IMG/VR virus record: IMGVR_UViG_3300035228_000525
Location: 1 to 59,138 of that record
DNA from: a virus
Lineage: Duplodnaviria > Caudoviricetes
Reading direction: 5' to 3' (one strand)
DNA: 59,138 bases
Shown: positions 3,257 through 45,945 of the stretch, in pieces
Layout of the letters: every line of letters begins with the position of its first letter
Position numbering within the stretch: the first letter of the stretch is position 1
Made by a program: the position numbers and the translations under genes
Notes under the pieces: generated by a model
What the model was told of the DNA's origin: nothing
The model's input: the letters and a program-made list of their open reading frames with translations, nothing else
Databases searched by the model: none

Positions 3257-4170
3257 TCAGGATCAATCACAAACTGTTGTTTTGCATTTCTACTTGGATT
3301 TTGATAAACTGTTTTAAAAAACTTACTTTGTTCTGCGTCTAAAGGAACCCTTGCAATAGGAACTTCTAGTTCATTAATAAGTTTACTACCGTATTCCTCA
3401 ATAGATTCCTGTAGTCCATCCATTGATACCTTTGGTTCAACTTCTTCCCACATACTATTAAGGTATTCAAAGTCTCTTACATTTACAAAGTCCCAATCAG
3501 TACACATTGTTTTGTACAAGCCTTCGCGAGCACCATAGATTGCCCATTTGCCGTTTTCTATGTCTGATCCTATCATTAACCACACCCATAACCTATGTAA
3601 ATTTTTCCAATGACCTTCTAAGAATGCTTCTTTAGTTGGCTTTACTCCTTGATCAAGCGCCATCTTTACACCTTCTCTAAATCCAGCTCTCCATGCTTGA
3701 TGCGGAGTTTCGTTATTATATACATCACTATACCAACTGTTTTGCTGTATGTATTTTAAGTCCCAACAAAAATCTACTTGAGCATTAGGATTATTAGGGT
3801 CGGCATTTTCATGTGTTTTCATATCTAACACGTATTGTTTAGGCCAACATTTTAATCCACCGTTGCCGTACATAAGTCCATTAATAACATTACGGCCACA
3901 CCAACTAATTACACTGTGTTCTAAATCTGCATGTTCATCAAAGTTTAAAACTTGGTTTAAAAATTCTGGTTTAATAATATTATCACCGTCTACAGTAATA
4001 AATCGACTTGTTTCACTTAGATTTGCACAGGCTTTGTGTGCCGCGTCTGATCCTTCAACTCCATGTACACGTTTTGCCCAGGGCACTTTACTTAATAAGT
4101 CTGCATAATTTTTTTCTGCATTTGGCTCGTCATAACTTAAATAAATTATATCGTAATCTATAATCTTCAT
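3253..4170 (-). CDS. Glycosyltransferase-like protein (GT-A fold, GT2-like)
   Basis: DIIYLSYDE N-terminal strand, AHKACA..FITVDGDN DxD motif, GNGGLKCW; sits among other GT-like genes. Confidence 0.65.
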   Translation of the reverse strand: MKIIDYDIIYLSYDEPNAEKNYADLLSKVPWAKRVHGVEGSDAAHKACANLSETSRFITVDGDNIIKPEFLNQVLNFDEHADLEHSVISWCGRNVINGLMYGNGGLKCWPKQYVLDMKTHENADPNNPNAQVDFCWDLKYIQQNSWYSDVYNNETPHQAWRAGFREGVKMALDQGVKPTKEAFLEGHWKNLHRLWVWLMIGSDIENGKWAIYGAREGLYKTMCTDWDFVNVRDFEYLNSMWEEVEPKVSMDGLQESIEEYGSKLINELEVPIARVPLDAEQSKFFKTVYQNPSRNAKQQFVIDPE

Positions 4171-13778: not shown

Positions 13779-13786
13779 TATTTATT
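13779..13786 (-). promoter_or_regulatory. Late promoter-like AATAAATA
   Basis: TAAATA core overlapping the stop of the giant gene, upstream of 13757. Confidence 0.55.
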
Positions 13787-22500: not shown

Positions 22501-25500
22501 GCTAGTTTTTCCCAATCAGGAAGTTCTGATTCTATTTCAATTTTATTATTGAATACATCTGTAATAGTATAAAACGCCTCTACTGTTGTTGGAGCAGTAT
22601 CAGTTCCAACTATTTGATCTATATTATAAATTCCAATAATATCACCTATTGCAACATTAACTGTGTTATTACAATTAAGTGTTATAGTAGTAGATTCTTG
22701 CGTTATTGTTTGAATTATTAAATTACTATCAACATGCTTTAATACATTCCATGATTGATCGTCTGTTGCTACCCATACATATGCACCCTTGTCTATATCA
22801 CTAGTTGCAAAATTTAGTAATCCGGCAGTATTAGATACTGCTCTATTAACATCTTCGCCTGTAACATACCCAACTGTTTTTACATATTCGTCATTTAAAA
22901 ATTTTGTTGGCAGTCTGTTTGTTTCGTAATCTTTAGGTTTTAAAAATACATCATAATGCGGAATTCTATAAGTTAGATCTGTTGTTGCAGTTGGTACAAC
23001 GTCTACTAGCTCAATTGGTTGTGGCTCAAGTCTAAATTTAGCCTCGTCTAATTGATATTCAATTTCTTCAAATCCATCACTTGCACCGTATTGTGCAGAT
23101 TTAATAGCCCATTCTTCATAAAAGTCAACACTATCTTTATCAGCACTTGCTAAACTATCAAATAATTTATCAATAGCATTTCTTGTACCTTTATCAGCTA
23201 TCATTCCTTGATAAAATTTATATTGACTTACTTCGTCATTAATAATGTTTTCTAAATATTGTCTTTTTTGGTAGCCAATTAAATGCTGTGCCATTTTTTG
23301 TTGATCTGAATCAAAATTATCTGAATCAAGATCGTAAAAGTCAGAAAATTGATTAATTCTATAATCAAAGTTTGTTAGCAGTTTTGTATCTGGCTTTTTA
23401 TCTAATCGAGCCCAGTTTAAGGGATCAAATATTTCTGTTCCTGTAATATTAGTCGTTGCACTATAATAAAATTCTTTGTATTTTACTACATCACCAATAG
23501 CAAAATCAGTCCATTGTGCCCAATTAACTACTTTAGCAGAATCAAATATAAATCCAGGAATATTAAGACTACCAGTCCATCCAGCGGCTACATATCCTAA
23601 TACTTTAATTCTTTCTTGTCGATATCCTGTAGCAGGACTGTATATTACATCTTCAAATACTGATTTATTATCTAAAACTGCAACATGTTCATATTGCACT
23701 TGAGGGAGAATTGAATGATAAAGTCCATCAGCAGTATTTTTAAGTTGTATTACAAAGTTTCCACTGTCTCTGTTTAATCTTGTAAGATCTTCAGTTATTT
23801 TTTGACCGCTGGCATTTAAAATACTATAATCATAAAAGCTATCATATAAGTTATCAATTACAGAAAATGTTGAATTAAATTCTAATTTTGAAGCCGATGG
23901 ACTAATTGCTAAAACTGTCCCGGCCGCCCAATTTTGTGTGGTAAAATATAGAAATTCTTTTGTACTTAATTTCCAATCTTCAACAACTTGTGATTCTTTA
24001 TTATAGTAATCAAATTTAAATCCTACAGATTCTAAATAATTTCCGTAGCCTAAGATAAAATCAACTACATCTTGTATTGATTCAAGTAACGTGCCATATG
24101 GTAAAACTTTAACATCTGTTTCAAAACTTTTTCTATATACTGCGGTACGTCCACCAAGTGTAGGAAGTTCAGCCATTGGCTGAAATTTATCTGCTTCAAA
24201 ACTTGTAGTACTTGTATGCTCTGCTTTTACTCTGTAAAATTGACTATTATTTCTTACATTACTACCTACTAAGTATTTTTGCCCTGTTGACCATTCTAAG
24301 AAAGACTCTGATATCCCGCCAACATTAATATTTGGATCACTTATAGTTACTTGTGGTTCATTGTAATTAAACGTAGGGTTTGTATTATCGTATCCTCTAA
24401 CAATAAACCCACCTGGTGCTTTTTCAATCATTATACCACTATAAGATGCTACCTTTAACGGAGAACTTTTATTTAAGAAAATGTTGTAATTCTCTGTTGG
24501 TAAGAATACGTTTCCTTTATTAAATGGAGTTCTGCTATCTAGTATAAATTTTAATTTTTCTTTATCAGTAAATGACCCTAGCTTAATACCTAATTGATTT
24601 TTAATTAATTTAAAATTTTCTTTATAAGTTGAAACATCTGTTGTTCCTTCACTAGCTAAGTAATCAACAATATAATTAATTAATCCTGATGTATGAGTTA
24701 TAGTAGTATCAGTTGCAACTGTTGGTAATACTAAATCTTTAGATGATAATGATTTTTCAGTTGTAGAATATATCCATTGACCTGATAACGACTTATTCAT
24801 CCTAGATAGATCAAATCCTAATCCCATTATTTTATGAGGTTGATTTAATATCCAAGACTTAATTAAACTAAATGGATATTCTCCACTACGTCTCCAAGCA
24901 GTTTCTGTAGGGCCTTCGTCGCCAAACTTTAGAGAAGATGCAATTGATGACGGAACAAATCCTGATGTAAATCCTGCTTCTTGTGGACTTAATAGCTGTC
25001 CAGATTCATTAACTGGAATATGTTTAAGTAATTCTTTTCTTTTATATTTTTTAATAAATTCTGCAGGAACATTAGGTGCTTTAATCTTACCTTCTTGTAT
25101 ATCTTCCCACATTACTAAGTTATTACTTGTATAAGGTGCAGGACCATATTGTGTTTCCCACCAAGTAGGCATAATTGTAAAGCCTAACATCTCCCAAGGA
25201 TGGCTATGGGGTCTATCTGTATCGTATGCTTGTTTATATACAGATCTCCAAAATCCGTTAACATTTGTCTCGTCTCGTGTAGACATCTCTGAATAGTTCC
25301 ATGTAAAACTATTAGCTCTAGTATAAAAATCTGTAGTTGAAGTATAGTTTAATCCGCCTAGGCTTTCTGACCACTGTACAAAATCACGCATCATTGCATT
25401 GTCTATTTGTGTTTTAGTAAATTTTGTATTTCTATCGTTACTTGGCACAAAATTGTGTATATCTAATCTAGTAGTATCATATGTTATTTTAATATTATTA

Positions 25501-28500
25501 AAAATTCTTTTTTCTAATTCTAATAATAACTGATCTCTATAGTCCATGAACGCTATTGTTTTACTGCCGTCGTGACCTTGTATTACTCGTGTAGTTGTTT
25601 GGTAGGTATCATCTTCTATTATTTCTGGATGATATGAAGGATATAATCCTAACTTAGTTGGAGTTGGTGGAATAAAACTTCCGGCTGTATTTTCATACTC
25701 AAATATTTCAATTAAATCATTTTTAGTTTTAGTTGCTGTTATAACAGCAAATCCATCTGTATTAAATGTATAATCTTTATTATGTATTAATTGAACACCG
25801 TTTTGATAAATTGTAACTGCTTTTGATGAAAGTGTATTTAAATCATATACTTGGCTTAATGAAAAGAAATTATTTTCTGAATCATAAACTACAAATTCTA
25901 AACGCTTGTAACCTTCACCAGGAACCATATCACTAAAACGATAAGGATCAGTATCTATTTTATCTTTATGATATTCATGTAATATTTTATCAACATGTTG
26001 CTTTACTGGTCCATCATAACCCAACGTTTCGGCTATTTGTAAAAAAGATCTTTTAAATTTTCTATATTCTTTTCTAGCAAAATCAATTGCTTTAATTATG
26101 TTTGCATCTTTATCAGTAGCATGATATACATTTATATTTGGTGACCCTGCATACTGTAAAAACTTTTTACCATAAGATGATATATTACCAAGACTTGCAA
26201 TATTACTTACTCCAGGAAATATTCCTGTAAACCCTGGTAAGTCTTCTATCATAGTATTAACATGGTCATTTACTTCTCCTAGTGTAAATGTACTAAGATT
26301 TTCATTTTCTGGATTTTTTTCCATTGCATGTGGAAATTCGTAGTGCCCGTTAGCATTTTTAATTGTATCACTATTAGTTTTAATTACTACACTGCTATTT
26401 ACAGGTATTGCTGTTGCAAATCTAACAGTCTTAACTCCGTTAACATCTACAAGAGTATAATCAAATCTCCAAGTATTATCAACTTGAACTGCACATTTTA
26501 GATCTGTAAGTGTACTACTGTTATCATAAACATCAATACTAAAATCTGTTTGTGCAGTAGTAACGTCATACTGTCTAATAACTTTTGAGACTGTATTTGT
26601 ATTAGCTTTCTTCCAACCATTACAATAAGTAAAACTATCAATATCTGTGTAAACTCTATAAAAGCCAGTATCAGACTTTTTAGATAAAGGTGTGTTATTA
26701 ATTTGATAATTAAACGTATCTGTTACTAAATTAAAATCAAAAGTTATATCACCTACATTTTCTAATGCTCTGTAAGTAATAGGAAATCCTAATTCAATGT
26801 CATTAGTGCCTGATCCAACTTTATAACTAAAGATTTTGTTACCACGGAAATCATTTACTGGATAAGTAGTTTCGTTGGTAAAACTAATACCATTATTATC
26901 AAATAATTCAAATAATGGTTGTTGATTTATTTTTGTTTTTAGTTGTGCTACTTTCCAATCAGTGCCATTATAATAATACTGTTTACCTGCATTAGTACCT
27001 TTAGTTATTAATGCAACCTGGTTAGTAATTGGCAATGTGTCGTCTTCTTCAATCAGTGCAATTTGCGTTACTGTTGAATTGTGTTTAATCATTTTAACTT
27101 TATAGATTCTATCTTTTACAAGTAGATCAGGATCAGCTACGAACAAAATACGCATGCCGTCAGTAATATCAACACCGTCAATATTATAACCTTCTCTACC
27201 ATTAATAGTTGAAAATACATCAGTAGTAAATGTATCTATAAGATCTACATTTTCTGCTTTTGCTGATGTACCAAATTGATAAAGTTTCATTCCGGCATTA
27301 AATTCAAGAATTGGTCGTTTAGCTCTTGCACTTTGATCAATATTAAAAACTTGTCCATTTAGAGTTGCTGTTTTTTCAAGTACTGATTTATGAAACCATC
27401 GATTGTTTCTAGACCAAGCATTTTTATCAGGAGATGCTCTATTAATTACAACATAGTCCTTAGTTGCCGCATACGAACTAGCTGTTCCATATGGAAGGTT
27501 ATCAAAGTTATTTGCATCAAATAGCACTTCTATATCTTCTGAATATGTTTGAGGGATTATTAAATCTGTGTCTTGGATTAGTAAAATTTTATTACCTACT
27601 CCTTCAACATACCAAGAACCTGTTGCATATTTTTCAGGAGTAACTGTTCCTGTAAAATTAAGCTTCATTCCGTTCATTAATTCAGTACCGTTTGCACTAG
27701 TATAAGTTTTTTTACCTAGTATATCATCAGATATGTTAATAGATGTATTTGATTCAATTTCTGCAATTCTAAACATTCCGCCTGTATTAACATCTGTTTC
27801 TGAAACATAATACAATCTCTCAGGAGCATTTAGCGGAACAGTAAATGTTACAACACCATTGTCAACACCAGCGTTAGTAACTCCTGTTGCGTATTCATTG
27901 TCACTTTCAATCAATCTCGAAGTTCTTATTGTAAACGGAAGTCCAGGAGTACCTACATCAAATATATAAGTTTGTCCTCTATATAATTCTAATGTAGGAT
28001 TCTGTGTTAATTCACCATTAAATACGTAACCCTTATTTCCAGCATTATCAACGCTATTTACAGTATATGTACTTGTAACATCATCTGATTGTCCAAAAAT
28101 TGATATTGGAGCAGGACCACTTGGTAGCCAATAATACTCACGGAAGTTTGTAAGTTTATCCCAGTCTACGCTAGAATCCCAAGAGTAATATTCTTGACTA
28201 TTGAATAAACTTTCATTAGTAGTAGTACCACCTAATATATCAAGCTGATTTCTAAAATCATTATAATCTTTATAAAATAAAACATTATTCAATATATCTT
28301 TAGAAACTAATGCAGGCTCTAATTGATAATTAGTTCTATTAGCGTTAACATCGCCTAGATAGATATCTGTCGGTGAGTATGCCGGAGCTGTTTTTCTACC
28401 AAGATAACCATTTAATTTTTTAGCTGTACCAGGCTTTGTAACCTGATCGAGTGTAGAATTTAAAAATTTTTCATTACTTTCTGTACGAAAGTATTTTGGT

Positions 28501-28574
28501 AATAGTTCAGCGGACTTTCTATCAGATTTACCATTAACTGGTAGTGGATAGTCCTTTTGATCATCGTACGCCAT
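19587..28574 (-). CDS. Giant virion/baseplate wedge-associated protein, N-terminal part (2995 aa)
   Basis: N-terminal LLPKYFRT..FL, NPTLELYRGQTYIF, four CBM5/12-like W/Y...Y..GD.V.Y motifs and FG-GAP-like repeats. Follows gp6 by TAATG overlap, the position of T4 gp7. Confidence 0.8.
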   Translation of the reverse strand: MAYDDQKDYPLPVNGKSDRKSAELLPKYFRTESNEKFLNSTLDQVTKPGTAKKLNGYLGRKTAPAYSPTDIYLGDVNANRTNYQLEPALVSKDILNNVLFYKDYNDFRNQLDILGGTTTNESLFNSQEYYSWDSSVDWDKLTNFREYYWLPSGPAPISIFGQSDDVTSTYTVNSVDNAGNKGYVFNGELTQNPTLELYRGQTYIFDVGTPGLPFTIRTSRLIESDNEYATGVTNAGVDNGVVTFTVPLNAPERLYYVSETDVNTGGMFRIAEIESNTSINISDDILGKKTYTSANGTELMNGMKLNFTGTVTPEKYATGSWYVEGVGNKILLIQDTDLIIPQTYSEDIEVLFDANNFDNLPYGTASSYAATKDYVVINRASPDKNAWSRNNRWFHKSVLEKTATLNGQVFNIDQSARAKRPILEFNAGMKLYQFGTSAKAENVDLIDTFTTDVFSTINGREGYNIDGVDITDGMRILFVADPDLLVKDRIYKVKMIKHNSTVTQIALIEEDDTLPITNQVALITKGTNAGKQYYYNGTDWKVAQLKTKINQQPLFELFDNNGISFTNETTYPVNDFRGNKIFSYKVGSGTNDIELGFPITYRALENVGDITFDFNLVTDTFNYQINNTPLSKKSDTGFYRVYTDIDSFTYCNGWKKANTNTVSKVIRQYDVTTAQTDFSIDVYDNSSTLTDLKCAVQVDNTWRFDYTLVDVNGVKTVRFATAIPVNSSVVIKTNSDTIKNANGHYEFPHAMEKNPENENLSTFTLGEVNDHVNTMIEDLPGFTGIFPGVSNIASLGNISSYGKKFLQYAGSPNINVYHATDKDANIIKAIDFARKEYRKFKRSFLQIAETLGYDGPVKQHVDKILHEYHKDKIDTDPYRFSDMVPGEGYKRLEFVVYDSENNFFSLSQVYDLNTLSSKAVTIYQNGVQLIHNKDYTFNTDGFAVITATKTKNDLIEIFEYENTAGSFIPPTPTKLGLYPSYHPEIIEDDTYQTTTRVIQGHDGSKTIAFMDYRDQLLLELEKRIFNNIKITYDTTRLDIHNFVPSNDRNTKFTKTQIDNAMMRDFVQWSESLGGLNYTSTTDFYTRANSFTWNYSEMSTRDETNVNGFWRSVYKQAYDTDRPHSHPWEMLGFTIMPTWWETQYGPAPYTSNNLVMWEDIQEGKIKAPNVPAEFIKKYKRKELLKHIPVNESGQLLSPQEAGFTSGFVPSSIASSLKFGDEGPTETAWRRSGEYPFSLIKSWILNQPHKIMGLGFDLSRMNKSLSGQWIYSTTEKSLSSKDLVLPTVATDTTITHTSGLINYIVDYLASEGTTDVSTYKENFKLIKNQLGIKLGSFTDKEKLKFILDSRTPFNKGNVFLPTENYNIFLNKSSPLKVASYSGIMIEKAPGGFIVRGYDNTNPTFNYNEPQVTISDPNINVGGISESFLEWSTGQKYLVGSNVRNNSQFYRVKAEHTSTTSFEADKFQPMAELPTLGGRTAVYRKSFETDVKVLPYGTLLESIQDVVDFILGYGNYLESVGFKFDYYNKESQVVEDWKLSTKEFLYFTTQNWAAGTVLAISPSASKLEFNSTFSVIDNLYDSFYDYSILNASGQKITEDLTRLNRDSGNFVIQLKNTADGLYHSILPQVQYEHVAVLDNKSVFEDVIYSPATGYRQERIKVLGYVAAGWTGSLNIPGFIFDSAKVVNWAQWTDFAIGDVVKYKEFYYSATTNITGTEIFDPLNWARLDKKPDTKLLTNFDYRINQFSDFYDLDSDNFDSDQQKMAQHLIGYQKRQYLENIINDEVSQYKFYQGMIADKGTRNAIDKLFDSLASADKDSVDFYEEWAIKSAQYGASDGFEEIEYQLDEAKFRLEPQPIELVDVVPTATTDLTYRIPHYDVFLKPKDYETNRLPTKFLNDEYVKTVGYVTGEDVNRAVSNTAGLLNFATSDIDKGAYVWVATDDQSWNVLKHVDSNLIIQTITQESTTITLNCNNTVNVAIGDIIGIYNIDQIVGTDTAPTTVEAFYTITDVFNNKIEIESELPDWEKLASLTNLNGIITKFSTQRVSTLSDANNLSTKDLQSKEVIWVDDDDTGKWKVIKNSPVYTQAQTLKSSLPLDSTQHNFGHSITANEANTLLAIGIPDKGNGEVHVYKRSSDANNLVFDQTISAPSTYVDTYDGSTEITSQKFGESVSFSPDGKYLIIGSPHASNVKTAYKGTYIEGSNYNKNDIIKYGPNLFKAVAVIDGAVGSIPYTTFDSYADIVSDTDSTLLNLLQTGNYKLNSKPNTTHLLVRAPKQAYEGSKEGDSIVLKWNTYSNLNIQGYNVAVEPFDGQFAPITGAFLTDTHPIVNKVENVLHIANFQNLPGVGQTVNSAVASGTVAYVGDADGAAIVYVKDVNGTFASTGQLFINEIAVGDYTEDYVNPSSNVGGYWMITTPAYETSADSSNIFVDPGQGLIYVDVIKENSGRTPNYFYNIQDNIQAIGAKTSANDQISFIESFTYEGDPGEVFGVQTSNQWAIRVPKVFSDVKTIGDQFFLKVDNQSGLVDLTGTAFTFDILNKQHTIADVWDGYIDFVFDNFSTLNQLPFEPAVGDIVRDASSGATAEVVFYKRQFNDVRLYVKNTTGNWSLGDNWGQTSDIIRQGTPDRTMGEIKNVSLGTSEVGKIFVITETTNFANVAITQLLDKEYWIYNEITLQGIARGANIPSSNNNDWSQVNNLIASNSTNATGSGLTQEGMISIYSISEVNQFEHNNSYVIPEREHYKKFGDEIQVTQTGTGVNALYRVAVASNGNDTESNPGSIHFIKNGRENTVGNTFVNYDWQLDINPLFRGQFSVTTFYKVDEIVSYNKELYSANQNIASGSAFSTTNWTKLSSTTTHVGYIPSTPEQLVIGEGIYTPEGGIRDFAKKFDQDKTGQVLITSTKIQGNDSTGARAVNVYRQVNGQFTISQTIEGPYTDVSTDTLTGFGDAISISADGTLIAVGEPYNNSVASSQGKVYIYKLTAGTFTLSQTLTSHNNEVA

Positions 28575-31500
28575 TAGTAACTATATCCTCCGCTACTGCT
28601 ACTGCTACTGCTACTGCTACTGCTACTGCTACTGCTCGAGCCGCTATTTGAATTAATAGTAGTGTTATAAGAACTACTAGAACTTTGTATTCCAGTATTT
28701 GCTGTTTCTGTACTTGCTGTTACAACGTTGCCTGTTGCTTTTAATCTAGTTGCTGTTATGCTATCTATAATGTCTACATCTGCAACTGTTGCTCCACTTA
28801 TAAAAATTTCATCTGACTCTGACTTAATTTCGTATAATGATCCAAATGCTTGTGTGTCTTCATTTGGAACAATTACTATAGAACTAATATTAGGTGCAAG
28901 CTGATTCATTATATACGTTGATAATTCTGAAAAGTAAAATGATTCGCCAAATTCCCAATTCTCTAAACTAAAATATTCATTTATTGCGTTTATTACATTT
29001 GATTTAATTTCATTATCATTTGTAACTGTTTCTACATTTTTTACAATTTTAAAGGTTGCTTGCAAACTAGCCTCCGCTGATGGACCAAAAAGTATTTTAT
29101 ACTTTACTGGATGATAAATTACTTCATCACTAATAGATTTAATTTTATCTAACGCAACACCATAACTTCTATAAAGTTGATCGCTACTTGGCGGCATTGG
29201 TTTTACTGCAATATCTCCGTTAAGCCATTGTCTATAACTGTTATCATATAAACGAGTCAACATGTAAATATCTATTAAATTTGTACTACTAGGATCAATT
29301 CTTTTATTATTGTCTGCGGCATGTACGTACCTAAATTTTAAATCTGATCTTCCTAAAAATGCTTTATAAGTTGATATTTGTGTTAATGTAAGTTTATCAG
29401 TTGATAGTTGCTTAAATAATCCAGTATCAATGTAGTAAAAAACTTCTAATGCATCATAAGAACTATATGCATTCATTGCCGATTCAGTTGTTAGTACACT
29501 AATATTTTCGACGTTTGCTTTTACATATTTGAAATCTTCAACTCCATCAGTAGTAGTATATTTTTTCTCGAAAATATATTTTGTAGTCGGTGATATTGTT
29601 TCTTGTACAATATCAATAAACGAATTTGGGTTATCAACAACACCATCATCGTCGTCATCAAAGAAAGATATTTCTACTTTTTTGGTATCGACATATCCAT
29701 CATTGTCTCTATATTCTTTTGTAATTTCAAAATTATAATCTTTTGTAAAAGGAGTAGTACTACCGGGTAGAGTATTAATACTTAATACTTCAATTTTATC
29801 TTTAATAATTTTTCCTGTTTTATTATCATAAATTTTATCACTACTGTCATAATAAAATTTAATCTCATTATCACTTTCATATACATAACGCATTGCTCTA
29901 TATGTAATATCGTATTTTTCGCCATCAGTTTTAAACCACAGTAACCAACTTGCATCTAAATTTTGACTACTAACATCACCTGTTTTACCTGTACTAAATG
30001 GACTAGTAGTATTTAGGTTTACTTCTGTAATAATTCTCCATTGTCTAGTAGATACATCGTATCGCAAGCCAAAAGTATTATTAGCAAACGCTTGATCAAT
30101 AATTTGTGTTTTAACAGAATTAAGTATTTTTGTACTTAATTTAGGTCTAATCTCTGTTAATAATGCAGTTGATGGAATACTGTCATTTAATACTATTGGT
30201 CCTAAACCTGCTGTAGTATTTGTTGTGCCGTCACCATTAACACTGATTACTTTTACCCATTTGTAAGTTAAAGACCCAGGGTGATTGGCATCTCCTATCA
30301 TAAGTGTAGTTTTGTCACCTACCATAAAATGATACCCTGCAGGTGCTTCAAATTTTAGTAGTGACCCTGCTTCTAACAAACTAAGATTATTAGCTGTAAA
30401 AGATCCTACTTTATATTTTGCATCACTTTCATCTATTAAATATCCTGTTCCTCTATTAGTATCTGTAGTAACCTGCACCCATTCTGCTTTTAAATCAGAC
30501 GTAATAATTTTTGTAAAATTTGTAAGGTAGTAATTTAAAACTCTTCTGTCTTTTAATATTGGTTCTATTTTATTTGTAATAGCACTTTCAATATCTGTTT
30601 GTGTTGTGTAAGGAAAACTGTCTTTTTGAGTTAAATTTTCTTTATATATAATACCATCATTTGCAAATAAATTAGTACTACTATATTTTCCTGTAGAATC
30701 TAATAAGTCGTAGTATCTACTAATTCCGCTTGCAAACCTATTAACTGATTTAACTTTAATAATATCTTGACTTATACCTAATGGAGCAACATTGTAATCT
30801 TCTGCTGTAACCATTCTATTTTGTGTATAATATGTTGACGGAGCATTTTGTTTAATGCTATCGTTTGATTCACTAGTAGTACTATTAGACACTGTATATT
30901 TTAATTCTAAATTAAGTGTAATTGTTTCAATTACGTTACTTTTACTTAGATACGGAACTCTTACTTGTATTCCGGTCATGTCTTGCGGTTTAATTACATA
31001 TCTTTGATTATTACTAGTTCTATAAAAGACTTTAAATACACCTTTTGGTAATTCACCAAAAGTACCGTCGGAAAATACTAAACTAACTCTGTCACTTACT
31101 CTAGTAAGTACACTATATATTGTTCTAACTTTTTTACTAATGCTATTATAGATAACATTGTTGCCTTCAACAGCTTCAACTTTTGTCCAGTATTCTGCTT
31201 CTTGTCCTGACGAGTCTAATTTATATAACCATACATCGTCGTTGTTAATATTAGTTGCATCAATATCAATTATTTGATTTGTTGTAGGATTATTAACAAC
31301 AAATTGACCACTGTCAAGTGATCCTTGTTTGAACATACAAAAGAATCCTGTATTACTACTTGACGGTCCTTTGCCATCATCTTTAAATAAGTATGCAAAA
31401 CTATTTGCAGTTAGTGGAATTTCTTCTTGTATACTTTTTAAATCCGAATCAATATCTGTAGAAACAACTTCAAAATCTAAACTAGATCCTTGAACTGTTT

Positions 31501-32107
31501 TATTAAAGCCATATTTTGGAATATCTGTGTTTACTGCATTAAATCTATATTGTTGGTGGGGAACGCCGTCAACATTTTCCTTTTTGAGAGGTCGACCAAA
31601 TGTTCCATTAACTGGTAATGCAGTATTCATTATTTTAATAAATTGCTCATACCAATCAGTATTAGTAGGATCGTTCCATTGTATTTCTTGATTTGCTAAA
31701 TTAAAGTTGTTACTATCTACAACTTCTTCTGTTGTTGAAATGCTAGTAACTTTAAGTAACCCTTGTGCGGCTTGATTACGCTTTGGATTGTAAGAAAGTA
31801 ACCGTGCTAGACGGAGAACTGATTCTCTACGTTCAGCTAATTCTAAAAAGTTTTCTCTTGCATTTAGATCAATACGGAAGGAAATATTTTGACCTAAAAA
31901 AGCAATCAAATCAATTAAAGAAAGGTATTCGCTTGATTCAATATAATCATTAAAATCTTCAGGATAATTAGTCCTCAAGTATGATATCATTGTTCGTCTT
32001 AGATTATCAAAATCGTAGCTTTGAAAATCAGCGTTACGAAAACTTTGGTAAACCCTCTTCCAATCTTCTGCTACTAATAACCTATTTTGTCTATCTGTTG
32101 TTGACAT
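28574..32107 (-). CDS. gp6: Baseplate wedge protein (gp6-like)
   Basis: DFDNLRRTMISYLR..FNDYIESSE..ENFLELAERRESVLRLARLLSYNPKR, FSDGTFG, ESNDSIKQNAP..YTQNRMVTAEDY; adjacent to gp25. Confidence 0.85.
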   Translation of the reverse strand: MSTTDRQNRLLVAEDWKRVYQSFRNADFQSYDFDNLRRTMISYLRTNYPEDFNDYIESSEYLSLIDLIAFLGQNISFRIDLNARENFLELAERRESVLRLARLLSYNPKRNQAAQGLLKVTSISTTEEVVDSNNFNLANQEIQWNDPTNTDWYEQFIKIMNTALPVNGTFGRPLKKENVDGVPHQQYRFNAVNTDIPKYGFNKTVQGSSLDFEVVSTDIDSDLKSIQEEIPLTANSFAYLFKDDGKGPSSSNTGFFCMFKQGSLDSGQFVVNNPTTNQIIDIDATNINNDDVWLYKLDSSGQEAEYWTKVEAVEGNNVIYNSISKKVRTIYSVLTRVSDRVSLVFSDGTFGELPKGVFKVFYRTSNNQRYVIKPQDMTGIQVRVPYLSKSNVIETITLNLELKYTVSNSTTSESNDSIKQNAPSTYYTQNRMVTAEDYNVAPLGISQDIIKVKSVNRFASGISRYYDLLDSTGKYSSTNLFANDGIIYKENLTQKDSFPYTTQTDIESAITNKIEPILKDRRVLNYYLTNFTKIITSDLKAEWVQVTTDTNRGTGYLIDESDAKYKVGSFTANNLSLLEAGSLLKFEAPAGYHFMVGDKTTLMIGDANHPGSLTYKWVKVISVNGDGTTNTTAGLGPIVLNDSIPSTALLTEIRPKLSTKILNSVKTQIIDQAFANNTFGLRYDVSTRQWRIITEVNLNTTSPFSTGKTGDVSSQNLDASWLLWFKTDGEKYDITYRAMRYVYESDNEIKFYYDSSDKIYDNKTGKIIKDKIEVLSINTLPGSTTPFTKDYNFEITKEYRDNDGYVDTKKVEISFFDDDDDGVVDNPNSFIDIVQETISPTTKYIFEKKYTTTDGVEDFKYVKANVENISVLTTESAMNAYSSYDALEVFYYIDTGLFKQLSTDKLTLTQISTYKAFLGRSDLKFRYVHAADNNKRIDPSSTNLIDIYMLTRLYDNSYRQWLNGDIAVKPMPPSSDQLYRSYGVALDKIKSISDEVIYHPVKYKILFGPSAEASLQATFKIVKNVETVTNDNEIKSNVINAINEYFSLENWEFGESFYFSELSTYIMNQLAPNISSIVIVPNEDTQAFGSLYEIKSESDEIFISGATVADVDIIDSITATRLKATGNVVTASTETANTGIQSSSSSYNTTINSNSGSSSSSSSSSSSSSSSSGGYSY
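28592..28636. repeat. Perfect hexamer tandem repeat (GCTACT)7.5 encoding poly-Ser at the gp6 C-terminus
   Basis: Read directly; minus strand is alternating AGC/AGT codons. Confidence 0.95.
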
Positions 32108-40548: not shown

Positions 40549-41385
40549 ATGGCTAGAAGAGTAAATTACTTAAACAACAAAGATATTTTAAAAGAAATAC
40601 ACAAATCAAAGAGCACATTTTGTAGCTATACAGAAGAAGGCCATGCGAATTATGACATTATCTTATTAGACGTTGATAAAATTAACATTAGAACTATTGC
40701 AGAAGCAAAACGTAACAAAGCAAAGAAGCTTAGTTCGGCAGAATTTGAACGAAGAAAAGCAAACGGGGAGAAAGTTAAACAAGCAGAGTGTGAAGTCAAG
40801 TACACTAGTATTACTAAAGAAGAATTAATCTTCCGTATAATGACGTTTGATCACATTCCAGAAGAGCCTGGACGTAAAAAGAACCCTAAAACAATAGCAG
40901 ATACAAAAACAAAACTTAATTTTCCTCCATTTAAACATTATAAATTTGACGATAGCGGTAATTTACAACTAGTTGGTAAATCACACTGGCAAGGTGGCAT
41001 GGAAAACGGACATTTTGACAAGACATCAGGTAAAGCTACTAATAAACTTGCTATGATGTGGATGAAATTGTGTGATCGTTATGCAACAAGAGGAAATGTT
41101 CGCGGATACACATATAATGACGAAATGCGAGGACAAGCTATTTTACAATTAGCACAAATTGGCTTACAATTTGACGAATCTAAGTCACAAAATCCATTTG
41201 CTTACTATACTGCGGCTGTAACTAATAGTTTTGTTAGAGTTATTAATATAGAAAAGCGTAATCAAAACATTAGAGACGATATCCTCGAAATGAACGATAT
41301 GAACCCTAGTTTTACAAGACAAAATCAAGGACAATGGGAAGCTGAACAGAAAAGAGAAACTGATAAAATTAATGCGGCAAAATAG
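40549..41385 (+). CDS. gp55: Late-transcription sigma factor (gp55-like)
   Basis: NYLNNKDILKEI..RGNVRGYTYNDEM..FDESKSQNPFAYYT..SFVRVINIEK; synteny with gp47-gp46. Confidence 0.9.
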   Translation: MARRVNYLNNKDILKEIHKSKSTFCSYTEEGHANYDIILLDVDKINIRTIAEAKRNKAKKLSSAEFERRKANGEKVKQAECEVKYTSITKEELIFRIMTFDHIPEEPGRKKNPKTIADTKTKLNFPPFKHYKFDDSGNLQLVGKSHWQGGMENGHFDKTSGKATNKLAMMWMKLCDRYATRGNVRGYTYNDEMRGQAILQLAQIGLQFDESKSQNPFAYYTAAVTNSFVRVINIEKRNQNIRDDILEMNDMNPSFTRQNQGQWEAEQKRETDKINAAK

Positions 41386-41445: not shown

Positions 41446-42456
41446 GTGTTTAAAAAAGCGGCGGTTTTTACTGATATCCATTTAGGATTGAAAGGTAATA
41501 GCAAAGTACACAATCAAGATTGCGAAGATTTTGTTGATTGGTTTATTAAAAATGCAAAAGAAAACGGTTGTGAGACTGGGATCTTTTGCGGTGACTGGAA
41601 CCACAATAGAAATAGTTTGAATCTTACTACAATGGATGCAGGAATTCGTTGTTTAGAAAAATTAGGCAAAGCATTTGATAATTTTTACATGTTTGCTGGT
41701 AATCACGACTTGTACTACAAAGATAAACGTGACGTAAAGTCAACAGAATGGGCAAAGCACATTCCTGGTATTGTTGTAGTAGACGAAATACTAGTAAATG
41801 ATGATGTTGCTCTTGTTCCTTGGCTAGTAGGAGACGAATGGCGAAAGATTAAAGATATAAAAGCAAAGTACTTGTTTGGACATTTTGAATTACCTAGTTT
41901 CTATATGAACGCAATGGTACAAATGCCCGATCACGGCGAGTTACGTGCTGAACACTTTGAACATCAAGAGTATGTATTCAGTGGACACTTCCATAAACGA
42001 CAAAAACAAGGTAAAGTACATTATATTGGTAATGCATTTCCGCACAACTATGCTGACGCATGGGACGATGCTCGAGGAATGATGATACTAGATAAAGAAA
42101 ATAGTAAAGAACCCGAGTATATCGACTGGGCCGACTGTCCAAAGTACCGTACAATTAAACTAAGTCAGTTAATTGATGAGCAGGATAAACTTATTAAGCC
42201 TAACATGTACTTAAGAGTTAACTTAGACTTGCCTATTAGTTTTGAAGAAGCTAGTTTTGTTAAAGAAACATTTATTAACCAATATAAATGTAGAGAAATT
42301 AGTTTAATACCGCAAAAACAACTAGAAGAAATTAATACAGAACTAGATATACAGCAATTTGAAAGTGTTGATCAAATTGTTGCTGGCGAAATTGCCGCAA
42401 TCGACTCAGACAACTTCAATAAGAAGATGCTAATGGACATTTATAACGAACTATGA
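41446..42456 (+). CDS. gp47: Recombination nuclease subunit, Mre11/SbcD-like
   Basis: Metallophosphoesterase motifs TDIHLG, CGDW, AGNHD, GHFE, SGHFH; GTG start. Confidence 0.92.
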   Translation: MFKKAAVFTDIHLGLKGNSKVHNQDCEDFVDWFIKNAKENGCETGIFCGDWNHNRNSLNLTTMDAGIRCLEKLGKAFDNFYMFAGNHDLYYKDKRDVKSTEWAKHIPGIVVVDEILVNDDVALVPWLVGDEWRKIKDIKAKYLFGHFELPSFYMNAMVQMPDHGELRAEHFEHQEYVFSGHFHKRQKQGKVHYIGNAFPHNYADAWDDARGMMILDKENSKEPEYIDWADCPKYRTIKLSQLIDEQDKLIKPNMYLRVNLDLPISFEEASFVKETFINQYKCREISLIPQKQLEEINTELDIQQFESVDQIVAGEIAAIDSDNFNKKMLMDIYNEL

Positions 42457-44225
42457 TTAAGATTAAAGATTTAACCGTAAAAAACTTTATGAGTGTGGGT
42501 AATCAGACTCAGGCTGTTGACTTCGATAAAGAAAATTTAACACTTGTTCTAGGTGAAAACTTAGACCAAGGCGGAGACGACACTGGATCACGTAATGGTA
42601 CAGGCAAGACTACTATTATTAATGCATTGAGCTATGCATTGTATGGTACAGCTCTTACAAACATCAAACGCAACAACTTAATCAACAAAACTAACTCAAA
42701 AGGTATGTTAGTTACATTACACTTTGAAAAAAATAATATTGATTACCGTATTGAGCGTGGTAGATCGCCCAATGTACTAAAATTTTATGTTGATAACCAA
42801 GAACAAGAGATGACAGACGAGTCTCAAGGTGATTCACGCAAAACACAAGAGTATATTAACGATTTACTTGACATGAGTCATGATATGTTTAAGCATATAC
42901 TTGCATTAAACACTTATACTGAACCGTTTTTAAGTATGCGTCAAAATGATCAACGTGCTATTATTGAACAGTTGCTCGGTATTACTATTTTAAGTGAAAA
43001 AGCAGACGCACTTAAAGAACAAACACGACAAACCAAAGATGCTATCCAAGAAGAAACATTAAAGATTAATGCTATTCAAAGTGCAAACGAAAAAATTGGT
43101 GCAACTGTCGAAAGTTTACAAAAAACGCAACGTGCATGGCTATCAAAGAAAGATCAAGACGTACAAAAGTTAAGAGTAAGTATCGACGAACTAGAACATT
43201 TAGATATTGACATAGAACTAGAATTACATGAAAAACTAGCAAATTGGACTGAGCATAACAATGCTATTTTGGCTCTTAAAAAAGAATTAAGTACATTAGA
43301 GCCAGCATTAGTACGTGCTGATAAGAGTGTTGAAAAAGCATCTAAAGATATCGCAGATTTAGATGATGCTAAGTGTTATACTTGTGGTCAAGAACTACAT
43401 GCAGACAAAAAAGCAGAGATTTCAGACCGCAAATCTAAAGAACTAGAAGATGCATTAGCCTATCAAAAAGAAATTACTGGTAAAGTAACTGAGGTTATGT
43501 CAGCATTAGATAAAATAGGTGATATAAACGGAAAACCTACTACATTTTATGAAAATGCTAAAGAAGCATACGAACATAGGCAAAATGTTGACAGTTTAAA
43601 AAGTGCATTAACTAATAAAGAACAAGATATTGACCCGTATCAAACACAAATTGACGAATTAAACAATAGTGCTATGCAAGAAGTTAATTGGAGTGTAGTT
43701 AATAGCTTAACTGAGTTTAAAGATCATCAAGACTTCTTATTAAAATTACTCACTAACAAAGATAGCTTCATACGTAAGAAGATTATTGATCAAAACTTAA
43801 TGTATCTTAACAATAGGCTGACATACTACTTAGATAAGTTAGGACTTCCGCATCAAGTAGTGTTTCAAAATGACCTAGCTGTTGAAATTACGCAACTAGG
43901 ACAAGATCTAGACTTTGATAATTTATCAAGAGGAGAACGTAATAGACTTATACTCGGTATGAGCTTTGCATTCCGTGATGTTTGGGAAAGTTTATATCAA
44001 AAAATTAACTTAATGTTTATTGATGAACTTATTGATAGCGGTATGGATACTGCTGGTGTTGAAAATTCACTTAGTGTCCTTAAAAAGATGGGTAGAGAAG
44101 GCGATAAGAACGTTTATCTTATATCCCACAAAGACGAACTTATTGGTAGGGTTAATAATGTAATGAAAGTTATTAAAGAAAACGGGTTTACTAGTTACGA
44201 AAACGATATTGAGATTTTAGAATGA
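42453..44225 (+). CDS. gp46: Recombination ATPase subunit, Rad50/SbcC-like
   Basis: Walker A NGTGKTT, coiled coil with CYTC zinc hook, LSRGE signature, FIDE Walker B, LISH. Confidence 0.93.
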   Translation: MIKIKDLTVKNFMSVGNQTQAVDFDKENLTLVLGENLDQGGDDTGSRNGTGKTTIINALSYALYGTALTNIKRNNLINKTNSKGMLVTLHFEKNNIDYRIERGRSPNVLKFYVDNQEQEMTDESQGDSRKTQEYINDLLDMSHDMFKHILALNTYTEPFLSMRQNDQRAIIEQLLGITILSEKADALKEQTRQTKDAIQEETLKINAIQSANEKIGATVESLQKTQRAWLSKKDQDVQKLRVSIDELEHLDIDIELELHEKLANWTEHNNAILALKKELSTLEPALVRADKSVEKASKDIADLDDAKCYTCGQELHADKKAEISDRKSKELEDALAYQKEITGKVTEVMSALDKIGDINGKPTTFYENAKEAYEHRQNVDSLKSALTNKEQDIDPYQTQIDELNNSAMQEVNWSVVNSLTEFKDHQDFLLKLLTNKDSFIRKKIIDQNLMYLNNRLTYYLDKLGLPHQVVFQNDLAVEITQLGQDLDFDNLSRGERNRLILGMSFAFRDVWESLYQKINLMFIDELIDSGMDTAGVENSLSVLKKMGREGDKNVYLISHKDELIGRVNNVMKVIKENGFTSYENDIEILE

Positions 44226-44425
44226 CAGAAGATCCACATGACTCCTTAGTACAAGCATATTTGTCTTATTTTAAAGCAAACGAAAATTTTGAAGCTAGAA
44301 ATTCTCATAGAACACATGCAGAGAGCAGAAAATGGTTGCGAGAAATAAGAAAATATGCTAAACTTAGAAGTGATGAAATACATCAAAAACACAGAGCCAA
44401 AAAAGAGGCAATTAAAGGCAAGTAA
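44222..44425 (+). CDS. Small basic helical protein (weak resemblance to the Hc1-like phage family)
   Basis: 67 aa, K/R-rich, ATGA overlap with gp46. Family assignment is from memory and tentative. Confidence 0.6.
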   Translation: MTEDPHDSLVQAYLSYFKANENFEARNSHRTHAESRKWLREIRKYAKLRSDEIHQKHRAKKEAIKGK

Positions 44426-44439
44426 TAATAAGTATCCGT

Positions 44440-44871
44440 ATGCAATGGACTTATCAAGGTAAAAAAATAGATGATCTACCCTTAGGGTGTGAAGCATTTG
44501 TTTACTTGATAACAAATAAAGTCAATGGCATGAAGTACGTAGGCAAGAAACTAGCAAAATTTAAGACAACTAAGCCACCACTTAAAGGCAAAAAAAACAA
44601 AAGACGAGGCACTAAAGAAAGTGACTGGAGAAACTATTGGGGATCCAGTGATCGACTTAATGCAGATGTATTAGAGCTCGGTGAGGACAAGTTCACAAGA
44701 GAAATAATTCATATTTGTCCAAGTAGAGGCATTGCAAGTTACTTAGAGGCACGTGAACAATTTGAACGCAGAGTACTTGAAACAGATGATTACTATAATG
44801 GTATTATCAATGTTAGAGTTGGCGGTTCTCAAATACTAAAAGAACACTTAGGCAAATCAAGCAACACATAA
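44440..44871 (+). CDS. GIY-YIG-like endonuclease (short, catalytic domain only)
   Basis: FVYLITNKVNGMKYVGKK (GIY-YIG variant), YWGSS, FTREII, LE, YYN. Confidence 0.75.
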   Translation: MQWTYQGKKIDDLPLGCEAFVYLITNKVNGMKYVGKKLAKFKTTKPPLKGKKNKRRGTKESDWRNYWGSSDRLNADVLELGEDKFTREIIHICPSRGIASYLEAREQFERRVLETDDYYNGIINVRVGGSQILKEHLGKSSNT

Positions 44872-45246
44872 AGTTAGCGGGCTAGTTTATAATACCGCTG
44901 TGTAAAAAGTATCCGTAAAGGAACACACGTAACACATTGAGCCACGTCTGGTAATAAGGCGCAGGATTGATGTAGATTGAATGTTGCCAGTCAAAAAACA
45001 CAACACAGTTCATAAAAACTCTTTAGCAATAGGAACGAAGCGAGAGGTAGCGTAAGCGATGTCGACGTAGGTTGGGTAAGGTCAGAGCCCATTGAACTAA
45101 GTGTATAAACAATTACCTATTTCCAAGTCTCGGCTGTGACGAACTCACATGAAGTCAAGATTAGATGGAACCAGTAAATAGGTTCCGTCTGACTGAAACA
45201 ATCTACATGAAGTATAAACATTAATACATTCGTATTAATGCTTTTT
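44872..45246 (+). ncRNA. Candidate large structured non-coding RNA (~370 nt)
   Basis: No ORF in the track. Perfect 10-bp long-range helix 44970-44979/45199-45208, at least seven local stems with G-U pairs, a GNRA loop, a possible pseudoknot and a terminator-like 3' end. Family not identified. Confidence 0.65.
45219..45246 (+). terminator. Terminator-like hairpin closing the candidate ncRNA
   Basis: CATTAATAC-ATTC-GTATTAATG followed by CTTTTT. The stem is AT-rich, so termination may be weak. Confidence 0.5.
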
Positions 45247-45332
45247 ATATAATTCATATTTAAATCATTTAAATCAAAACGAAGTGTTGTAGTTTGAGTG
45301 TTAACGAAAACTTGTATTAACGAAGTTAATAC

Positions 45333-45340
45333 ACTAAATA
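45333..45340 (+). promoter_or_regulatory. Late promoter-like ACTAAATA
   Basis: TAAATA core followed by AAGGA RBS and ATG 45367. Confidence 0.6.
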
Positions 45341-45366
45341 CAAGTAATAAAGTTTAAGGATTACTC

Positions 45367-45945
45367 ATGAATGTCTATGATATTGTAAATGAAGATAAAA
45401 GAATTGATGAAAAGCCTACTAGTAGTACTATGAATACTCTTAAAGGTCTTGCTGGTAAATTACCTGGTGGTGAGCGTATGCAAGGTAGTGCTGATATGGG
45501 TAAAGAAGCTAATAACTTGTATAAAACTCTAAAAAGATGGCAAGGCATTAATGGCAAAAATGATAAAAACATGACAGCCCAAGACTTTGCACAATTTATG
45601 AAGCAAAATAAATTATCTGCAGGTGGTATGAAGCTACCTGATGGTGTACTTGATAAAAAAACTATTATGGATGTATTGAAGCAGGCCGCACGTAATAAAC
45701 TTACAGGCGGAAATGCGGCTTCTGCACCTAGCGGTGGTGCTGGCGCACCTGGCGCAGAGAAAAATTCTGCAGGCGGTATCTTAGATAAAATGCAAGCTAA
45801 GACTGGTAAAGCAGGAGTTGGTGGCGGAACAGCTGGAGCAAAAGCAGGTCCTACAGGAAAACCTGGCAAGATAAGTCCAGATCTAAAAGCTAAAATTGAT
45901 AAGTTAAATGATGCTCAAAAGAAATCATTAGCAGGGATGTTATAA
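45367..45945 (+). CDS. Hypothetical protein, probable internal head protein
   Basis: Late promoter; N-terminal MNVYDIVNE..IDE resembles prohead-protease-cleaved leaders; basic, Gly/Ala-rich. Confidence 0.6.
   Translation: MNVYDIVNEDKRIDEKPTSSTMNTLKGLAGKLPGGERMQGSADMGKEANNLYKTLKRWQGINGKNDKNMTAQDFAQFMKQNKLSAGGMKLPDGVLDKKTIMDVLKQAARNKLTGGNAASAPSGGAGAPGAEKNSAGGILDKMQAKTGKAGVGGGTAGAKAGPTGKPGKISPDLKAKIDKLNDAQKKSLAGML

Follow-up and report, generated by a model that had tools for sequence, protein, structure and literature searches.

A pseudoknotted twin-box RNA encoded behind a GIY-YIG nuclease gene in uncultured T4-like marine phages

Here, we analyzed a structured RNA gene carried by an uncultured marine T4-like myophage (Duplodnaviria; Caudoviricetes), represented by a viral contig of 59,138 nt (IMG/VR record IMGVR_UViG_3300035228_000525, positions 1 to 59,138; the whole stretch is hereafter the window) that is estimated to cover ~17% of a genome. 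Behind a gene for a SegE-type GIY-YIG nuclease, the window almost certainly encodes, on the plus strand, a discrete RNA of ~370-400 nt that extends from ~44848 to a hairpin with a U-tract at 45219-45246, is composed of a 5′ domain, a pseudoknotted core and a twin-box 3′ module, and represents one class, A, of a larger phage RNA family that is not catalogued. A preceding sequence-only reading of the window had proposed a large structured phage noncoding RNA of no assignable family at 44872-45246; this proposal is supported by more than 10 covarying helices, including a pseudoknot, by the asymmetry between G.U and A.C mismatches, and by the lack of a match in Rfam 15. The conserved unit exceeds the interval originally delimited, with a leader starting at ~44848 and conserved hairpins reaching down to 45332, and its two most unusual features had been missed, namely, the parallel covariation of the twin boxes and the close association with the GIY-YIG gene. 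With regard to function, we tentatively place first the possibility that the RNA is a cis-acting component of an R-loop-type or primer-type site at which replication or recombination starts, as exemplified by T4 oriF/oriG and ColE1 RNA II.

Results

A covarying fold on the plus strand

The secondary structure is a 91-pair model derived from an alignment of 90 copies, all pairwise identities being below 95% (alignment A1). Standard pairs are formed in 91.8% of the cells of this model, compared with 36-40% when the 3′ partners are slid by 1-3 columns; 56 pairs change on both sides, versus 29-44 in the slid controls, and so do 759 individual cells, versus 125-200, whereas none of 500 shuffles attains any of the five observed measures. 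Given that the alignment contains 725 G.U but only 139 A.C cells, the plus strand is the folded one, which bears out the initial impression that the mismatches are mostly G-U on this strand. The folding energy, which had been suggested as a check, is modestly better than that of shuffled sequences (z of -2.05 for the plus strand, with 3 of 100 shuffles at least matching it) but shows no strand specificity (z of -2.49 for the minus strand), so that energy alone could not decide whether the RNA is real. The elements of the RNA are as follows.

44848..44875, plus strand: conserved 5′ leader (AGGCAAA...CACAUAAGG), overlapping the nuclease gene at its final codons and stop codon
44876..44992, plus strand: 5′ domain with four helices of the 91-pair model (H1, H2b, H3 and H4)
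44876-80/44895-99, plus strand: H1, 98.7% paired, 4/5 pairs change on both sides
44900-03/44925-28, plus strand: H2b, enclosing the hairpin at 44909-24
44934-40/44967-73, plus strand: H3, 95% paired, 4 pairs change on both sides, enclosing a variable hairpin
44975-79/44988-92, plus strand: H4, 98.5% paired, 5 pairs change on both sides
45007..45124, plus strand: pseudoknotted core, in which helix X crosses helix C
45007-12/45093-98, plus strand: helix X (pseudoknot), 95.2% paired, 6/6 pairs change on both sides
45019-23/45042-46, plus strand: helix A, 92.3% paired, with the invariant loop GGAACGAAGC
45048-59, plus strand: hairpin B, of variable length
45067-72/45115-20, plus strand: helix C, 99.4% paired
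45073-91, plus strand: hairpin D, with an invariant 11-nt loop
45127-33/45155-61 (region 45127..45161), plus strand: hairpin E, 77.6% paired, 3 pairs change on both sides, with box 1 in its loop
45143-54, plus strand: box 1, ACUCACAUGAAG, in the loop of hairpin E
45164..45189 (45164-72/45181-89), plus strand: hairpin H10, 9 bp, between the two boxes, 98.8% paired, with many A-U/G.U exchanges
45201..45212, plus strand: box 2, AUCUACAUGAAG, repeating box 1 in direct orientation 58 nt farther on
45219..45246 (stem 45219-27/45232-40), plus strand: hairpin T, 9 bp followed by a U5 tract, the likely 3′ end of the RNA

The leader is conserved across A1, including copies in which the nuclease ORF stops ~100 nt farther upstream. 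Much of the local folding had been perceived correctly from the single sequence. The pairings AGCGG/CCGCT, CTCTT/GAGAG and GTAGGT/ACCTAT correspond to H1, helix A and helix C, respectively, and the pseudoknot AGTTCA/TGAACT to helix X. The TCC..GGA hairpin at 44912-22 also stands, with covariation at all 5 pairs, although it lies in a length-variable stretch and is 74.7% paired, and the GC-GTAA-GC hairpin at 45050-57 (90.4% paired, both pairs covarying) turns out to be the basal portion of a hairpin to which relatives add up to ~80 nt. Of the 12-bp stem originally drawn at 45161-72/45181-92, the 9 inner pairs that form H10 hold. For TGGG/CCCA (45073-76/45088-91), which is invariant in A1, covariation is uninformative, and CGTCT/AGGCG (44945-61) is 53.8% paired with 4 covarying pairs in an indel region that aligns badly.

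By contrast, the global architecture proposed at the outset, with a long-range helix enclosing the fold, is not conserved. The “perfect” helix 44970-79/45199-208 is 78.3% paired owing to conserved letters but shows only 2 compensatory cells in ~900, and at single positions, 23-58 of the 90 sequences are unpaired; its 5′ strand is instead engaged in the local, strongly covarying helices H3 and H4. Its suggested extension, CAGTCA/TGACTG, contains no pair that changes on both sides. The proposed TGTGA/TCACA hairpin (45135-49) likewise falls away: its 3′ strand belongs to box 1 and is invariant, and its 5 pairs include only 2 compensatory cells.

Embedded in this covarying scaffold are stretches that are invariant in all 90 copies, namely, GGAACGA (45032-38), GUCGA (45061-65), GGG.AAGGUCAGAGCCCA (45074-91), UUCC (45121-24), GUUCC.UCUGA (45182-92, with position 45187 at least 90% conserved) and AUCU (45201-04). 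Judging from complementarity, GGAA (45032-35) may pair with UUCC (45121-24), neither of which ever varies, and GGUCA (45080-84) may pair with UGACU (45190-94), where two pairs vary, none of them on both sides. The invariant palindrome GUCGAC (45061-66) lies in a single-stranded junction of the core and is a candidate for pairing between two copies of the RNA.

No counterpart among known RNA families

The search against Rfam 15 that had been called for returned no known family. There were no matches at the gathering score in the whole window or in 20 related loci, and none in 10 loci of the classes B and C described below; relaxation of the threshold to E ≤ 10 for the region 44000-45500 yielded 6 weak matches, none inside 44872-45246. 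The families covered include ROOL, GOLLD, HEARO, group I and II introns, RNase P, and transfer-messenger RNA (tmRNA). The Polynucleobacter-1 motif (RF01718), described by Weinberg et al. in 2010 (PMC2864571), has no match in the window, in the 20 related loci at the gathering score, or in the 10 class B and C loci at E ≤ 1. No tRNA or tmRNA was found in the window or in 40 related loci. Queries with class A, B and C RNAs against 50,697 phage records recovered nothing except for one 39-nt match, and full-text literature searches recovered no description of a twin-box RNA or of a GIY-YIG-linked phage RNA. In a survey of ~10,000 candidate viral structured RNAs (PMC10690425), the term “GIY” is absent from the main text, whereas the supplementary tables may list the motif unnamed.

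The initial comparison with ROOL and GOLLD stands as one of style and not of homology. Like these, the RNA described here is a large, highly structured, phage-associated orphan with long invariant loops; unlike these, it has no covariance-model match, is smaller (~370-400 nt), is not located near tRNAs, and is tied to a nuclease gene.

Twin boxes that change in parallel

One of the two most unusual features of the locus is the pair of identical 12-nt direct repeats that flank the hairpin at 45164-89. For each variable column of box 1, the column that shares most mutual information is its counterpart in box 2 (45147/45205, 45149/45207, 45151/45209, 45153/45211 and 45154/45212), and for columns 45147 and 45151, the mutual information equals the column entropy. 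Among the A1 columns, there is no “anti-box” complementary to the boxes, the best partner of every box column being its twin. Parallel covariation in the absence of a complementary column excludes intramolecular pairing and requires one partner that reads both boxes. Such parallel, rather than complementary, evolution is rare among RNA families and points to a partner outside the fold, such as a protein, the locus DNA itself, or a step of templating or realignment; no reverse transcriptase or other templating enzyme is present among the 38 window open reading frames (ORFs) scanned.

Complements of the boxes are found elsewhere in the window 4 times against 1.8 expected, a number equaled by 10 of 100 shuffles. 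When residues of the nuclease were compared with box letters, the top mutual information was 0.17-0.34, not above that of control RNA columns, in what is a weak test confounded by phylogeny. A look-alike, CATGAAGTA, inside the nuclease ORF (44529-37) is a coincidence, as it does not follow the box changes across loci. The start region of the downstream 192-aa ORF (45354-45366, ACUCAUGAAU) also resembles box 1 (ACUCACAUGAAG, 45143-45152); this resemblance may be due to chance, considering that other loci have different downstream genes.

The arrangement recalls the rolling-circle origins of geminiviruses and plasmids, in which iterons and a hairpin are combined: there, too, a hairpin is bordered by short direct repeats that differ between lineages in a concerted way, and a nuclease gene adjoins. 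However, those origins are DNA sites for an HUH Rep, whereas here, the hairpin between the boxes evolves like RNA (105 G.U versus 2 A.C cells), the enzyme is a GIY-YIG nuclease, and no co-variation between protein and boxes was seen in the weak test above.

Further RNA classes behind the same nuclease gene

The gene that precedes the RNA is the following.

44440..44871, plus strand: SegE-type GIY-YIG nuclease gene, 143 aa (PF19835, E of 3.6e-32, positions 1-123 of 123; PHROG 447/7363)

Scanning viral contigs with the nuclease protein retrieved at least 596 relatives, of which the best 80, 74-90% identical, were kept; the downstream 192-aa protein used as a query retrieved 8 loci, 63-72% identical. 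In ~40 of these loci, blastn detected sequence 70-94% identical to the gap directly 3′ of the nuclease gene. The 18-nt invariant core motif GGGWAAGGUCAGAGCCCA, used as a scan query, matched at least 119 further viral-contig stretches. Among contigs of prokaryote genomes, it matched 18 stretches, of which 15 fit chance, lacking every other motif, and 3 are real. The latter are RNA and nuclease copies on contigs of 73, 335 and 153 kb (L209, L222 and L225) that were binned to metagenome-assembled genomes (MAGs) of Crocinitomicaceae and Neomarinimicrobiota; these contigs are probably binned phage DNA and provide at best a faint hint at the host.

The class A core is detectable by nhmmer in only 31 of the 80 nuclease loci. 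The remaining loci mostly contain other RNAs of similar length with the same 3′ layout, i.e., box 1, a hairpin, UGRCU..AAC, box 2, a hairpin, GAGCG-NNA-GCGAAA and a last hairpin. The loci of the two further classes are listed here.

Class B, 250-500 nt after the nuclease stop codon: L048, L055, L069, L071, L087, L045, L079, L049, L037, L043, L076, L027
Class C, 250-500 nt after the nuclease stop codon: L056, L066, L078, L081, L038, L062

Thus, at least 2 further RNA classes, neither of them in Rfam, reside behind the same nuclease gene, with different cores and a common twin-box 3′ module, and the boxes recur in them with other sequences. A generic search for 10-nt direct repeats was non-specific (47/62 downstream regions versus 46/62 controls) and was replaced by a motif-bound test, which required two identical boxes separated by 45-75 nt and located 240-460 nt past the stop codon of the nuclease gene; 42 of the 62 usable loci contained such boxes, whereas none of the 62 upstream controls did. 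R1, a covariance model built from the class A 3′ module, matches the window with 126.8 bits (E of 7.6e-27), at a locus that possesses the boxes, their spacing, the SegE-type gene and the hairpins S1 and S2 described below. It also recovers class C copies at the expected place (E of 0.004-0.05), the copy in L068 (9e-5) and one class B copy (0.087); nothing was detected in Melnitz, a cyanophage, or phiN3. In one sub-lineage (L040, positions 3446-3520; L080; L190), 2-3 tandem CAGACACCAAGUC-like repeats are located between the nuclease gene and the RNA.

Proximity to the nuclease gene across loci

Of the 136 motif instances in the motif-fetched loci, 17 are due to chance and 119 are real. The nuclease gene lies less than 700 nt upstream, on the same strand, of 108 of these 119 RNA copies; 10 copies are too near a contig end, and a single one (L133) lacks the gene, with other small ORFs of no known family in its place. 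What precedes the nuclease gene varies by locus, including a 67-aa ORF, the C-terminus of gp46 or other proteins, and the downstream gene varies in both identity and strand. As the PF19835 profile is covered entirely, the protein consists of the catalytic domain only, with no DNA-binding extension; a sequence-based search for a solved structure found none.

In the reverse direction, the linkage is looser. Relatives of the nuclease that are ~45% identical occur in 391 cultured phage records, 349 of which are labeled Synechococcus, Prochlorococcus or “Cyanophage”, and in Sinorhizobium phages; in the two cultured-phage records that were examined, coding genes directly follow the nuclease relative, and there is no RNA. 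Even among close relatives (80-83% identical), 4 loci (L032, L035, L042 and L046) have an ORF 13-14 nt downstream and no twin box. The protein family, therefore, does not require the RNA. In records of cyanophages and Sinorhizobium phages (e.g., NC_047714.1 and NC_028945.1; L227 and L228) and in PHROG 447, this family is widely labeled “NAD synthetase”, which looks like a propagated misannotation.

The RNA can also be an early transcription unit of its own, given that some relatives have a sigma-70-type promoter just upstream of it: in L011 (class A), L025 and L059, an 11-of-12 match on the plus strand is located where the nuclease ORF ends, 9-12 nt after the stop codon in the first two loci and overlapping it by 3-4 nt in the third.

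These observations bear on several explanations of the locus. A coupling in which the RNA regulates, inhibits, scaffolds or directs the adjacent nuclease, for example, as an inhibitor resembling an RNA antitoxin that is released by cuts at the boxes, or as a partner conferring specificity, is favored by the near-constant proximity of the gene, which holds across classes A, B and C and at least 3 upstream contexts, and by the absence of a DNA-binding domain in the protein. We nevertheless consider it unlikely in view of the RNA-less nuclease relatives, both close ones and those of the ~350 cyanophage records and Sinorhizobium phages, the nuclease-less RNA copy, and the promoter that intervenes between the gene and the RNA in some loci; moreover, no protein column follows the box variants above background in the weak, phylogeny-confounded test, the RNA lacks a hypervariable segment resembling a guide, and the window shows no excess of box complements. 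An RNA-guided nuclease of the CRISPR/OMEGA type was rejected because the nuclease family occurs without the RNA, the RNA once without the nuclease, and there is no guide-like hypervariable end. A type III toxin-antitoxin system of the ToxIN type was rejected because the RNA is downstream, only the two 12-nt boxes are repeated, and the protein is a GIY-YIG nuclease.

Alternatively, the nuclease could be a free-standing homing endonuclease beside an RNA gene that holds or adjoins its target, the linkage resulting from co-conversion and the function of the RNA being unrelated. The SegE-type family, the differing genes upstream, the differing genes downstream on either strand, and the swapping of RNA cores as modules with retention of the 3′ module would fit such a mobile cassette. 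However, for a selfish gene, the protein is unusually conserved (74-90% identity among the best 80 of at least 596 relatives versus 63-72% for the neighboring 192-aa protein), the RNA lacks the nuclease gene in only 1 of 109 decidable cases, and the role of the RNA is left unaddressed, so that we regard this explanation as improbable.

A GIY-YIG ORF beside a ~330-nt pseudoknotted RNA in a T4-like phage also brings to mind phage group I introns of the td/I-TevI type, and the RNA could be a degenerate or atypical intron, or another known ribozyme, with an endonuclease ORF. We deem this highly improbable: neither the intron nor the ribozyme models of Rfam give a match, even with the threshold relaxed to E ≤ 10; no host gene is split, as the flanks differ between loci and are not two halves of one gene, the upstream neighbor being the complete nuclease ORF; this ORF lies outside the fold and precedes all of it rather than occupying a peripheral loop; the promoter of L011, L025 and L059 separates the two; and hairpin D, located between the crossing helices X and C of the covarying pseudoknot, seems at odds with the P7-P3′ order of the intron topology.

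DNA-level features around the RNA

Beyond the RNA, and upstream of it, the locus contains conserved elements that are listed here.

45241..45292, no strand assigned: AT-rich spacer, 81% A+T versus 65.4% in the window
45296..45332, plus strand: hairpins S1 and S2, beyond T, conserved and covarying
45298-45305, plus strand: S1, GC/GU-GNNA-GC/AC, 98.3% paired, 2/2 pairs covary, GNNA loop closed by C-G
45314-21/45325-32, plus strand: S2, with a C-GAA-G loop, 90.3% paired, 8/8 pairs covary
44406..44854, plus strand: 8 clustered AGGCA motifs, in a stretch shared with the end of the 67-aa ORF and with the nuclease ORF

Over 75 relatives, the stretch between box 2 and S1 has a mean A+T content of 76%. 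The helices of the locus evolve under two regimes. The RNA helices tolerate G.U pairs, with 43 such cells in H1, 152 in H3, 63 in H4, 69 in A, 149 in E and 105 in H10, against 0-36 A.C cells (2 in H10), whereas T, S1 and S2 are Watson-Crick-only and lack a strand bias, with 4 G.U and 16 A.C cells (among 590), 0 and 1, and 28 and 18, respectively. The S2 loop has the form C-GNA-G in 47 of 75 relatives, and the T loop has its mirror image, C-TNC-G, in 39 of 73. Each of the two DNA strands would thus carry a single hairpin with a GNA loop, the two hairpins bracketing the AT-rich spacer. GNA and GNNA loops closed by C-G are hyperstable types of DNA mini-hairpins.

The AGGCA cluster comprises 8 of the 39 plus-strand copies of this motif in the window, and 7 of 13 Gly codons are GGC, versus a 20% background. 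Nuclease ORFs with an RNA downstream contain, on average, 4.82 AGGCA and 0.02 TGCCT, whereas RNA-less relatives (L026, L028, L029, L035, L227, L228 and L001) contain 0-2 AGGCA. In the leaders of some class B loci (L055, L076 and L079), AAGGCAC repeats spaced by ~10-11 nt are apparent by eye.

Genomic setting

The RNA locus is set in a replication and recombination module, beside gp47/gp46 (SbcCD-like), with the following genes on its 5′ side.

40549-41385, near the RNA locus: late sigma factor gp55-like gene, assigned by family matches of the window proteins
41446-44225, upstream of the RNA locus: gp47/gp46 (SbcD/SbcC-like) genes, assigned by Pfam and PHROG
44222..44425, plus strand: 67-aa basic ORF with no Pfam or PHROG match; homologous 3′ coding sequence precedes the nuclease gene in many related loci

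On the 3′ side, there are genes for baseplate proteins, portal, prohead protease and the gp23 capsid protein. The ORF-free gap spans 44872-45366 (495 nt) and is, as initially noticed, the longest of the window, with no ORF of at least 60 aa on either strand between 44871 and the next such ORF, which begins at 45367; the gap contains only ORFs of 33-46 aa, all on the minus strand.

Two other regions of the window deserve mention. At the left contig end (3-3256, minus strand), there are three adjacent ORFs of the radical-SAM/SPASM type, with PF04055 twice just below the cut-off and PF13186 at an E of 2.9e-12. Beside the baseplate genes (13782-32107, minus strand), three giant ORFs of 1889, 2995 and 1177 aa have almost no family matches and presumably encode tail-fibre or virion proteins.

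Discussion

Several features of the locus go beyond what intramolecular folding of an RNA accounts for: the parallel boxes, the two regimes of helix evolution, the mirrored loops of T and S2 around the spacer, and the oriented AGGCA repeats. We rank first, at a probability that falls short of even, the possibility that the RNA is the cis-acting RNA part of a start site for replication or recombination, a reading in which the gene neighborhood, the parallel boxes, the AT-rich spacer, the oriented repeats and the strand-symmetric hairpins would all find a role. Origins that depend on an R-loop or a primer RNA are established for T4 oriF/oriG and for ColE1, where RNA II is followed by downstream single-strand initiation hairpins. 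The twin-box locus resembles these in that a transcript, putatively promoter-driven in some relatives, would run into an AT-rich stretch, which in the window lies at the end of the transcript (45241-45292), in the conserved DNA hairpins past the RNA end, and in the replication and recombination genes nearby; a further likeness is to ColE1, where folding of the RNA matters. Unlike RNA II, however, the twin-box RNA is far more knotted and invariant, and there is no sequence similarity; we know of no counterpart of the twin boxes or of the AGGCA arrays in R-loop or primer origins.

The functional steps that we infer would be the following. An early promoter of the sigma-70 type, such as that found directly upstream in some relatives, would drive the transcript, and the folded RNA would terminate beside the AT-rich spacer. 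Through the identical boxes, two equivalent sites of the locus would be contacted by the transcript itself or by a single shared factor. After opening of the spacer, T (with its C-GNA-G loop on the minus strand) and S1 and S2 (with GNNA and C-GNA-G loops, respectively, on the plus strand) could form on single DNA strands and serve as loading or priming signals, and the intermediate would be processed by the neighboring structure-cutting nuclease together with gp46/gp47.

Several observations weigh against a start site. To our knowledge, R-loop origins need no elaborate, invariant, pseudoknotted core, and this core looks more like that of a ribozyme or a ribonucleoprotein (RNP). T and S2 can be read as convergent intrinsic terminators, each with a U-tract in its own transcript; this fits many relatives, in which the downstream gene is convergent, but fits the window less well because its downstream genes run the same way. 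In the window itself, no plus-strand sigma-70 match of at least 9 of 12 positions occurs in 44100-45500, and no initiator or helicase-loader gene adjoins the RNA locus. The enrichment of AGGCA inside an ORF could partly reflect codon or amino-acid constraint. The GC skew turns at ~40.5 kb together with gene orientation, not at the RNA, and is uninformative as an origin marker. Finally, no cultured phage among the 50,697 records carries the RNA.

A possible, if somewhat doubtful, alternative is that the molecule is a free-standing, trans-acting ornate RNA or RNP, in the style of ROOL and GOLLD, whose invariant loops bind a protein, a ligand or other copies of the RNA, e.g., via GUCGAC (45061-66), with the boxes being two sites for one phage-specific factor and T a terminator. 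This would account better than a start element for the invariant knotted core, as long invariant single-stranded stretches within a covarying scaffold are typical of tertiary and catalytic RNAs, and it agrees with the promoter found in relatives, with the hairpin and U-tract at the RNA end, with the single copy that lacks the nuclease gene, and with the cultured phages whose nuclease relatives lack the RNA. A preprint (10.1101/2024.12.08.627333) reports large phage-associated RNAs that assemble into multimers made of RNA alone, and this also counts in favor of a free-standing RNA. Such an RNA would, however, leave unexplained the conserved, strand-symmetric hairpins past the terminator, the oriented AGGCA array that reaches ~450 nt upstream into coding sequence, and the constant attachment to one gene while both flanks change.

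A start site could also involve the nuclease more intimately. It is conceivable, although we would give it little weight, that the RNA and the catalytic-domain-only GIY-YIG protein constitute one machine, in which the RNA addresses the nuclease, or the nuclease cuts an RNA-DNA structure set up by the RNA at the locus that encodes it, with the boxes engaging two equivalent DNA sites or both strands, thereby creating a primer or break that starts replication. If so, this would be the first RNA-dependent GIY-YIG system.

Whatever its role, the RNA is abundant, with at least 119 viral-contig stretches captured by the 18-nt motif and no fewer than 596 relatives of the linked nuclease gene, contigs of 186-268 kb (such as those behind L038 and L039) being among their carriers, and yet it is absent from Rfam 15, from the phage records (save for the one 39-nt match) and from the literature searched. 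Its deep covariation makes it a ready target for structure work. If it works with the nuclease, the locus would represent a new kind of RNA-protein system for DNA cutting; and if it is an RNA-primed origin, as we tentatively favor, a large group of ocean phages would for the first time have an origin type that is defined by sequence.

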